From an uncultured Bacteroidales bacterium (GTDB lineage Bacteria > Bacteroidota > Bacteroidia > Bacteroidales > WCHB1-69): a stretch of DNA of 64,000 bases. The notes below the pieces were generated by a model, which was given only the letters and a program-made list of their open reading frames with translations, was not told where the DNA came from and searched no databases. The stretch's first letter is position 1. Each line of letters opens with the position of its first letter. The translations under genes and the position numbers were made by a program. Where the stretch lies: the NCBI GenBank assembly GCA_937892025.1, contig CALAVA010000042.1:739-64738 (forward strand), in the 5' to 3' direction. Shown here piece after piece: positions 6,352-6,714 of the stretch.

Positions 6352-6714
6352 ATGAAAGAGTATCAAATCGCAGAAATCGTAACCCCTTACAGTTATGAGG
6401 AAGAAGAAAAGGAGTTGAAAAACACGCCACAACACGTGCAGTATTGGAAAGGCAAATATCCAGATGCCGTCATCTTGTTCCGTTGCGGTGACTTCTACGA
6501 GTCTTATTGTCAGGATGCACAGACCTTAAATAAGGTGGTAGGGGTGCCGGTGACACGGATGAAGGGCAAGAACGCCTATAACATTGCTAAATTCCCATAC
6601 TATGCACTTGACACGTATCTGCCGAAGTTGATTCGGGCAGGTAAGCGTGTGGCGATTTGCGACCAGATTGAAGAACCTAAAAAGAAAACAATTACAGAAA
6701 CTTTTACTAAATAA
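6352..6714 (+). CDS. standalone MutS domain I (mismatch-binding domain)-like protein, 120 aa
   Basis: TP..[24 protein letters not shown]..DA...L...VTRM....[31 protein letters not shown] is collinear with the MutS N-terminus (TPMMQQY..FYRMGDFYELF..DA....MAGIPYHA...YL.KL...G..VAICEQ). Confidence 0.7.
   Translation: [120 protein letters not shown]

Follow-up and report, generated by a model that had tools for sequence, protein, structure and literature searches.

The stretch of DNA considered here (the window) comprises 64,000 nucleotides of contig CALAVA010000042.1 from an uncultured Bacteroidales bacterium (assembly GCA_937892025.1); it has 42% G+C and covers almost all of the genome of a tailed, Bacteroidota-type phage of about 64.8 kb. 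In its early region, beside genes for a RadC protein and a serine recombinase, lies a small open reading frame (the focal ORF) whose product of 120 amino acids is a complete domain I from MutS, a protein of mismatch repair, and nothing more. As the window also carries a terminase, a portal, RecT, a diversity-generating retroelement (DGR) and further phage genes, the focal ORF is phage-encoded and lies outside a chromosomal mutS locus. It begins with an ATG and its stop codon falls within the coordinates in Table 1. The choice of start is backed by an N-terminus that is kept in the homologues P0002-P0009 (proteins and loci of our survey carry the prefixes P and L), and a Shine-Dalgarno-like sequence stands just upstream. 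Scans around the gene for sigma-70 and Bacteroides-type promoters and for terminators gave results at chance level.

A first-pass annotation, made from the sequence by eye, had proposed that this protein consists of domain I only, that it keeps the GDFYE mismatch motif and that it has lost the connector, clamp and ATPase domains, and both the profile search and the structural comparison that it suggested as checks bore this out. The Pfam profile MutS_I (PF01624) was recovered with E = 3.5e-23 and 82.4 bits, past its gathering threshold of 20.6, residues 25-113 of the protein aligning with profile positions 1-93 of 113. The best match in a sequence search of the PDB was to residues 10-100 of Escherichia coli MutS (E = 3e-13), and GDFYE of the focal protein falls opposite the GDFYE stretch of that protein, which holds the Phe36-X-Glu38 mismatch wedge. 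An AlphaFold2 model, for which 60 homologues served as input, had a mean predicted local distance difference test (pLDDT) score of 84.7, and all 50 of the PDB matches that Foldseek listed for it were MutS or MSH chains, with aligned spans of 78-103 columns and Taq MutS at the top (E = 2e-8, root-mean-square deviation 2.2 A over 87 columns). With the full-length MutS equivalogs of NCBIfam, the bit scores of 84.8 (NF003810, cutoff 480) and 72.6 (TIGR01070, cutoff 641.7) fell far short, and alignment was confined to model positions 2-93, so that the ORF fails as a full-length MutS. No connector, core/clamp or ABC ATPase (domains II-V) and no other Pfam domain was found in the protein, which ends 7 residues past the matched domain I.

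Table 1. Features of the window discussed in the text, with the evidence for each.
Feature	Coordinates	Strand	Basis
Free-standing MutS domain I gene (focal ORF)	6352..6714	+	ORF, Pfam PF01624, PDB MutS match, AlphaFold2 and Foldseek
Shine-Dalgarno-like AAGGAGG	6337..6343	+	8 nt before the focal ATG; read from sequence
Acidic clade-specific N-terminal extension, residues 1-24	6352..6423	+	Two homologue alignments; consensus M-EY-x-V-K-E-I-V-T-P-x-N-Y
GDFYE, Phe-X-Glu mismatch wedge motif, residues 46-50	6487..6501	+	Aligned with E. coli MutS GDFYE
CobS-like AAA+ ATPase (AAA_5)	1109..2365	+	PF07728; phrog_249
DUF7192 protein, conserved partner gene of the AAA+ ATPase	2423..3292	+	PF23822 E=1.3e-29
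Small serine recombinase (resolvase/invertase type)	4569..5384	+	PF00239 E=1.5e-24; phrog_125 DNA invertase
RadC/JAB protein, directly upstream of the focal ORF	5783..6259	+	PF04002 E=3.6e-38
RecE-like exonuclease and RecT annealing protein	33168..34966	+	phrog_434 E=5.8e-15; PF03837 E=6e-43
Phage beta sliding clamp, straight after RecE-like exonuclease and RecT	35029..36165	+	DNA_pol3_beta domains 1-3
DGR cassette	44569..47667	-	RVT_1, TR/VR repeat, Msl fold, conserved Msl-RT module; linkage to focal ORF not supported
DGR reverse transcriptase (RT)	44569-45759	-	RVT_1
DGR template repeat (TR)	45804-45992	-	189-nt repeat shared with the variable repeat (VR)
Msl-like protein of the DGR	46137-46697	-	AlphaFold2 fold comparison
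DGR target gene	46831-47667	-	Contains VR 46834-47022

The domain is preceded by the acidic N-terminal extension (net charge -4), which AlphaFold2 predicted to be coil over residues 1-12 and helix over residues 13-23, with pLDDT of 75-79. The core that follows, residues 25-120, is basic, with an isoelectric point (pI) of 9.4 and a net charge of +7, the median pI of cellular domain I being 9.0. The extension is common to a subfamily of proteins of 104-125 aa that are 52-57% identical to the focal ORF (P0002-P0009 and P0104), and this extension and a shared gene order mark out the focal clade (P0002-P0009, L001, L006, L062 and L191). It resembles the strand that comes after domain I in MutS (KRGITELVTPG), and a similar segment, KVAEIVTPQD, lies C-terminal to a MutS-I copy in the tandem protein P0224 (residues ~205-217). 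Because the motif also sits after a MutS-I copy there, the solo gene may have descended from a tandem MutS-I array. The notion that the extension (EYxVKEIVTPxNY) stands in for the last beta-strand of domain I was rejected, since the model has coil and helix in this region and no strand, and inspection by eye of the N- and C-terminal tails gave no convincing beta-clamp-binding motif.

The focal ORF has many relatives. A protein search with it gave 3,186 matches, many of them fragments of genuine Bacteroidales mutS genes, and when 1.84 billion representative proteins were screened exhaustively with a hidden Markov model (HMM), 14,514 matched at E<=1e-3. In IMG/VR, 205 viral stretches encode a relative, and the best 80 of the 205, together with the window, L001 and the cultured Bacteroides phage B124-14, formed the set of 83 loci that was examined. 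Solo genes (<=170 aa) account for 26 of these and fusions for 44; the other 13 were assigned, by length and open ends, to a class of full-length MutS or MutS cut off by the contig end, in which at least one member is really a giant fusion (L035, where MutS-I lies within an ORF of >5,400 aa that runs off both ends of the locus). The closest relatives of the focal ORF are other solo or fused MutS-I proteins of mobile elements. Records labelled as phages of Staphylococcus, Listeria and Acinetobacter also had MutS matches (37-39% identity), but they look like host DNA and were set aside.

The company kept by the domain in the fusions is varied. The partners include ArdC-N with the polyvalent-type zincin peptidase MPTase-PolyVal (L004, L012 and P0228), DarA_C (P0227), ParB, which may be at either end of the protein (L051 and L065), a CobS-like AAA+ ATPase and several unknown N-terminal domains. 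Among the top HMM matches are proteins of 1,100-7,400 aa with 2-6 matched MutS-I stretches (P0225-P0230, P0234 and P0237), and Pfam scans of five such giants confirmed 2-4 MutS-I copies in them, alongside ArdC-N, MPTase-PolyVal, DarA_C and DUF285. Small tandem proteins also exist (P0224, P0232 and P0233), each with one canonical MutS-I copy and one degenerate copy that has no wedge, an arrangement that recalls the asymmetric pair of domains I in the MutS dimer. Across these very different architectures, 56 of the 63 dereplicated proteins from mobile elements (about 90%) have an unaltered GDFYE motif, and of the seven others two are mis-hits of the search pattern and five are true variants (GDFYV, GDYYE, GDYYN, GNFYE and ADFCE).

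Such conservation bears on one alternative explanation, that the focal ORF is a piece of a host mutS gene gained by illegitimate recombination and without function. Its product shares about 56% identity with domain I of cellular MutS from Bacteroidales (29-37% with that of E. coli or Taq), and many "short MutS" entries in the databases are indeed truncated or frameshifted mutS genes. But the gene has exact domain boundaries and its own ribosome-binding site, its clade has kept an N-terminal extension and a gene order across phages with just 50-58% identity, viral relatives number 205, and the motif is conserved. To judge from these alignments, conservation largely refutes the idea of an inert fragment, which we find scarcely credible.

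Compared column by column, the core of the domain is as conserved in the mobile-element copies as in cellular MutS, with relaxation at the N-terminal TPMM segment, at the residue matching E. coli R58 and in the C-terminal region near R108. As GDFYE is mostly intact and the core is conserved as in cellular MutS, the pattern indicates selection for a function in contacting DNA, with the wedge motif under purifying selection. Between the mobile-element copies and cellular Bacteroidota domain I identity is 49-79%, which is about the level found among the copies themselves, and the copies come in at least two flavours, the RCGDFYETY-type and the RVGDFYETF-type, each of which is nearest to a different cellular Bacteroidota MutS type. 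That two flavours track two cellular types suggests either more than one capture or a tracking of the host.

This unusual nearness to host MutS would also be expected of a protein-level decoy, i.e., a mimic of domain I that engages a host protein with which domain I is normally in contact, be it another MutS domain, the beta clamp, MutL or some unknown partner, and so poisons the repair complex, and the presence of a beta clamp encoded by the phage itself is in keeping with such a role. The binding sites of MutS for MutL and the clamp, however, mainly lie outside domain I, and the TPMM/QQY segment of the MutS N-terminus, once proposed as a clamp contact, is among the parts relaxed in the mobile-element copies. 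In addition, the basic core has the look of a DNA binder, and the high identity could reflect recent or repeated capture. A decoy of this sort seems improbable to us.

The genes around the focal ORF give further clues. Early and replication genes occupy a long block on the plus strand, from ~60.8 kb through the end of the window and on to 40.8 kb, and in addition to the AAA+ ATPase, DUF7192, resolvase, RadC, RecE-like, RecT and clamp genes of Table 1 this block holds a D12 methylase and a DnaB-like helicase with a primase-polymerase-like region; the structural genes, DGR, portal and terminase form a minus-strand block. Pfam confirmed the RadC and recombinase neighbours named in the first-pass annotation, and the exonuclease/RecT pair that it had noted also held up. 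Mismatch repair of the MutL-endonuclease type relies on the sliding clamp, which makes the phage clamp gene of potential relevance here. Searches of the PDB with the sequences of the AAA+ and DUF7192 neighbours gave generic AAA+ matches or none, tblastn at E<=1 detected no homologue of ArdC in the window, a look-up of the focal ORF by its exact sequence found no existing record, and a nucleotide search of GenBank phages with window positions 4-12 kb gave no match. A scan of genome contigs with the focal ORF yielded three loci only, a 717-aa open frame in Prevotella ihumii and two distant MutS-type matches, and no host genome with the phage.

Parts of this arrangement recur in other phages. The order AAA_5 - DUF7192 - ... 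- serine recombinase - ... - MutS-I is kept in the window, L006, L062 and L191 (in L191 the upstream recombinase is a Pfam Resolvase gene); the AAA+ gene is followed by DUF7192 in these three loci and in L079, and the resolvase part of the block was seen in L001. Resolvase homologues that are 58-60% identical to that of the window lie near MutS-I in L001, L006/7, L062 and L079, and RadC adjoins MutS-I in the window and in L044 and is <=5 kb away in L016. In L079 (IMGVR_UViG_3300037249_000287), from a phage of the same clade, the gene at 9749-11362 encodes a homologue of the window's AAA+ protein (32% identity over 327 aa) with MutS_I, at residues 100-185, inserted between the N-terminal domain and the AAA+ module; next come genes for DUF7192 and for a resolvase that shares 58% identity with that of the window. 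On sequence grounds this fusion is a Rosetta-stone link between the solo MutS-I gene and the AAA+/DUF7192 pair.

Other loci have other neighbours. In a second group of phages (L038, L049, L061, L063 and L067), an ArdC-like gene lies 1-5 genes upstream of the solo MutS-I gene, the ArdC-like gene being preceded in most loci by the terminase and the solo gene being followed by portal and MuF; its 333-aa product clusters with ArdC-N/MPTase fusions and has an HExxH motif, its ArdC-like character being judged by eye only. In a third group (L013, L041, L057, L068, L069 and L081), the solo gene is beside portal and MuF, in some cases with the terminase upstream. Such a position, by portal and MuF, is one typically taken by genes for packaged and injected cargo. 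The close solo relative P0005 (L188:1-6043, ENA ERZ27318008) is beside a gene for a polyvalent protein of 5,959 aa (AAA_34, Helicase_C_4 and LPD38) and PcfJ/PcfK, and its 235-kb contig could belong to a conjugative element or to a phage of very large size.

These neighbourhoods raise the possibility that MutS-I is a targeting adaptor, a generic reader of distorted DNA that would bring partner enzymes to DNA structures in the element's own genome during replication, partition or remodelling, with no action on mismatch repair. The partners would be the CobS-like AAA+ ATPase with DUF7192 in this phage and ArdC, ParB or RadC elsewhere. Such a role is favoured by the L079 fusion with its DUF7192 and resolvase genes, by the block kept in four phages and by the ParB fusions in both orientations, but the partners are very heterogeneous, which speaks for a self-sufficient module rather than a dedicated complex, many solo copies do not have them nearby, and plain DNA binding needs no strict retention of the exact MutS wedge. 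An adaptor, with these partners, is in our view possible and on balance unlikely.

The same genome also has a DGR, which lies ~38-41 kb from the focal ORF (the first-pass annotation had put the spacing at about 40 kb) and in the opposite strand block. In this assembly its TR and VR agree at all 189 nt (100% identity), without adenine-specific differences; this may point to a naive or recently reset VR or to an inactive DGR, or may be an effect of consensus or assembly. Despite the full identity of the repeats, the TR/VR stretch is rich in AAC/AAT codons. Within the cassette, the ORF at 46137-46697 could not be placed in MutS_I by Pfam, PHROGs, NCBIfam, hhalign or a PDB profile search, and hhalign gave a probability of 9-25% between its family and that of the focal MutS-I. 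The top PDB fold matches of its AlphaFold2 model (pLDDT 82), however, were to MutS domain I (probability 1.00, E = 0.03, 79 columns). Its motif is GEFYR, with loss of the wedge Glu, and a helical C-terminal domain comes after the MutS domain I-like fold. None of 103 homologues had a PF01624 annotation, an identical protein is encoded on 62-65-kb contigs of the bioreactor metagenome ERR1278104, and the RT that follows is 58-71% identical among the IMG/VR loci with such a protein.

The DGR protein matches Msl, a small MutS-like DGR accessory described by Wu et al. 2017/18 (PMC5758913) and featured in the preprint of Macadangdang et al. 2024 (10.1101/2024.11.15.621889). Msl and the focal protein are alike as small mobile-element proteins with a MutS domain I-like fold; they differ in that Msl is always beside a DGR RT, has the helical domain and GEFYR motif and escapes detection by Pfam, whereas the focal protein is a canonical PF01624 member, outside the cassette and 38 kb away from it, and the cassette has an Msl of its own. 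The earlier claim that the phage has two proteins consisting of MutS-I only thus stood for the focal ORF, while the DGR protein is only distantly MutS-I-like, by fold match alone, and carries a further domain.

It had also been suggested that the focal protein has a part in the DGR, and one can imagine it as a helper in trans that works with Msl in protecting or processing the mismatched heteroduplex of cDNA and VR. Both are encoded in one genome, and deletion of host mutS raises DGR retrohoming in Bacteroides 5-10 fold (10.1101/2024.11.15.621889), i.e., host MutS suppresses it. Yet in IMG/VR the best 80 of 205 MutS-I contigs include neither any of the 23 contigs with an Msl nor any of the best 80 of 329 RT contigs, the 78-88-kb contigs of the closest focal relatives have no Msl match, and B124-14 has a solo MutS-I and no annotated RT. 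The distance and strand of the focal ORF, the remote similarity between the two families and the lack of any sign of diversification (TR = VR) likewise argue against a helper, which we regard as highly improbable. A specific tie between the focal ORF and the DGR is therefore not supported, although this is absence of evidence for linkage and not disproof.

MutS-I outside MutS is itself already known, from polyvalent proteins (2017), from Msl (2017) and from an annotated solo copy in B124-14. Iyer, Burroughs, Anand, de Souza and Aravind (2017, PMC5512222) reported the domain from polyvalent proteins in mobile elements of Bacteroidetes and Firmicutes and gave these proteins as its only place outside MutS, with ArdC-N co-occurring in about 80% of cases. 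The IMG/VR survey recovers fusions of this type. The likeness to the focal ORF extends to the same domain, its origin in cellular MutS, the host phyla and the company of ArdC-N, zincin peptidase and RadC-type proteins. The difference is that the focal domain is a separate single-domain gene with a clade-specific extension and without ArdC-N co-occurrence, which puts it outside two features of the polyvalent type; and no description of solo genes, tandem arrays or AAA+ and ParB fusions was found in the portions of PMC5512222 available. The copy in B124-14 (NC_016770) is ORF064c, a solo MutS-I annotated as a "putative mismatch repair protein" that, like the focal gene, is in an early/replication region, directly after a serine DNA invertase. 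It differs in being 81 aa long and truncated after the last core strand, in its motif ADFCE and in being only 37% identical to the focal protein.

The first-pass annotation had known of no described function for a stand-alone domain in phages. A literature search for a phage solo MutS domain I that had been described or tested found none, so the claim holds with respect to functional tests; it was too broad with respect to description, given mobile-element MutS-I, Msl and the B124-14 copy. What appear to be undescribed in the literature searched are the commonness of the free-standing form, the tandem arrays, and the N-extended clade with its AAA+ synteny and fusion.

The interest of the family thus lies not in the presence of the domain but in a compact, testable candidate for a phage protein that interferes with mismatch repair. 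Recombination between diverged sequences is strongly impeded by the mismatch repair of the host, which in Bacteroides also reverses DGR retrohoming. Our reading, put forward tentatively and as falling a little short of probable, is that the focal protein is a Bacteroidota mismatch reader, captured by mobile elements, that shields phage DNA from host MutS-MutL. It would be made early in infection and would bind mismatched, kinked or partly unpaired DNA as domain I does in MutS, and because the clamp, ATPase and MutL-recruiting parts are missing it would act as a passive cap. By covering such sites on phage DNA, it would stop MutS-MutL from aborting recombination between diverged sequences and from nicking or correcting heteroduplex, and the candidate sites are the heteroduplexes of RecT/RecE annealing, intermediates of replication or packaging and possibly those of DGR retrohoming. 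The protein would then combine an anti-mismatch-repair role with DNA shielding, comparable to that of ArdC-N or DarA against restriction.

Several observations fit a passive cap, among them the retained wedge and the conserved, basic core. The partners of MutS-I in fusions are DNA-protection or anti-restriction modules (ArdC-N with MPTase-PolyVal, DarA_C and ParB), the ArdC-like gene near some solo copies and the adjoining RadC are company of a like kind, and enzymes that generate heteroduplex are encoded in the window (RecT and the RecE-like exonuclease) and in B124-14 (the annealing protein Erf). Multiple copies in one polypeptide would fit multivalent DNA binding. DNA binding has been proposed for the MutS-I of polyvalent proteins by Iyer et al. 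(PMC5512222), defects in mismatch repair raise recombination about 100-fold (PMC3945230), and titration or inhibition of mismatch repair during lytic growth has been called an open question (PMC3945230); the cap agrees with this proposed binding and with the known cost of mismatch repair to phage-type recombination and DGR retrohoming. By analogy, ArdC-N, P1 DarA and the Gam proteins of Mu and lambda are also non-catalytic binders, proposed or known, that cover a vulnerable DNA feature of an incoming element, and the first two are linked to MutS-I by fusion (ArdC-N and DarA_C), though they have unrelated folds and act against restriction enzymes or RecBCD, not mismatch repair.

The focal protein shares the fold and the GDFYE wedge of bacterial MutS, but without domains II-V it has no means of DNA clamping, ATP hydrolysis, dimerisation or MutL recruitment. 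There is also evidence that weighs against a cap. High-affinity binding of mismatches needs the clamp domains of both MutS subunits, so that domain I by itself may be a weak binder. The focal ORF lacks two basic positions found without exception across the cellular MutS set, the equivalent of R58 (Met70 here) and the R108 region, and it also lacks the TPMM segment. Linkage to an annealing protein within 10-kb flanks was seen only in L062 and B124-14, gene context is loosely conserved outside the immediate clade, and a generic targeting module would account just as well for the fusions to the AAA+ ATPase and ParB. The targeting adaptor is hence the main rival of the cap, and both can hold together. 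As for the dominant-negative role that had been suggested earlier, MutS dimerisation runs through the ATPase and C-terminal domains, and since the focal protein lacks these a classical mechanism of that kind is unlikely, while competition for the DNA lesion is feasible.

Extended to the whole family, the passive cap becomes a doubtful but attractive proposition: solo, fused and tandem MutS-I proteins might be widespread natural inhibitors of MutS-dependent repair in phages and integrative and conjugative elements, capping mismatches, allowing diverged genomes to recombine (mosaicism) and keeping intact heteroduplexes such as those of DGRs and RecT, with the tandem and canonical-degenerate pairs rebuilding the asymmetric domain-I pair of the MutS dimer without its signalling parts. 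A small, abundant phage protein that is the mismatch reader of MutS only is a directly testable candidate inhibitor. Should it inhibit mismatch repair, part of phage mosaicism would be explained, and it would offer a portable tool for transient shut-off of repair in recombineering and in DGR- and retron-based editing in Bacteroidota, where, to our knowledge, the dominant-negative MutL tricks of E. coli are not established. Should it have no such effect, the family would still mark an uncharacterised module for reading DNA structure in many mobile elements of the gut and rumen. Elsewhere in the window, a DUF7666 protein (8160-8921) has in its middle a run of near-perfect 9-residue repeats (SGDSAQIGS / SGDYAQIGS).

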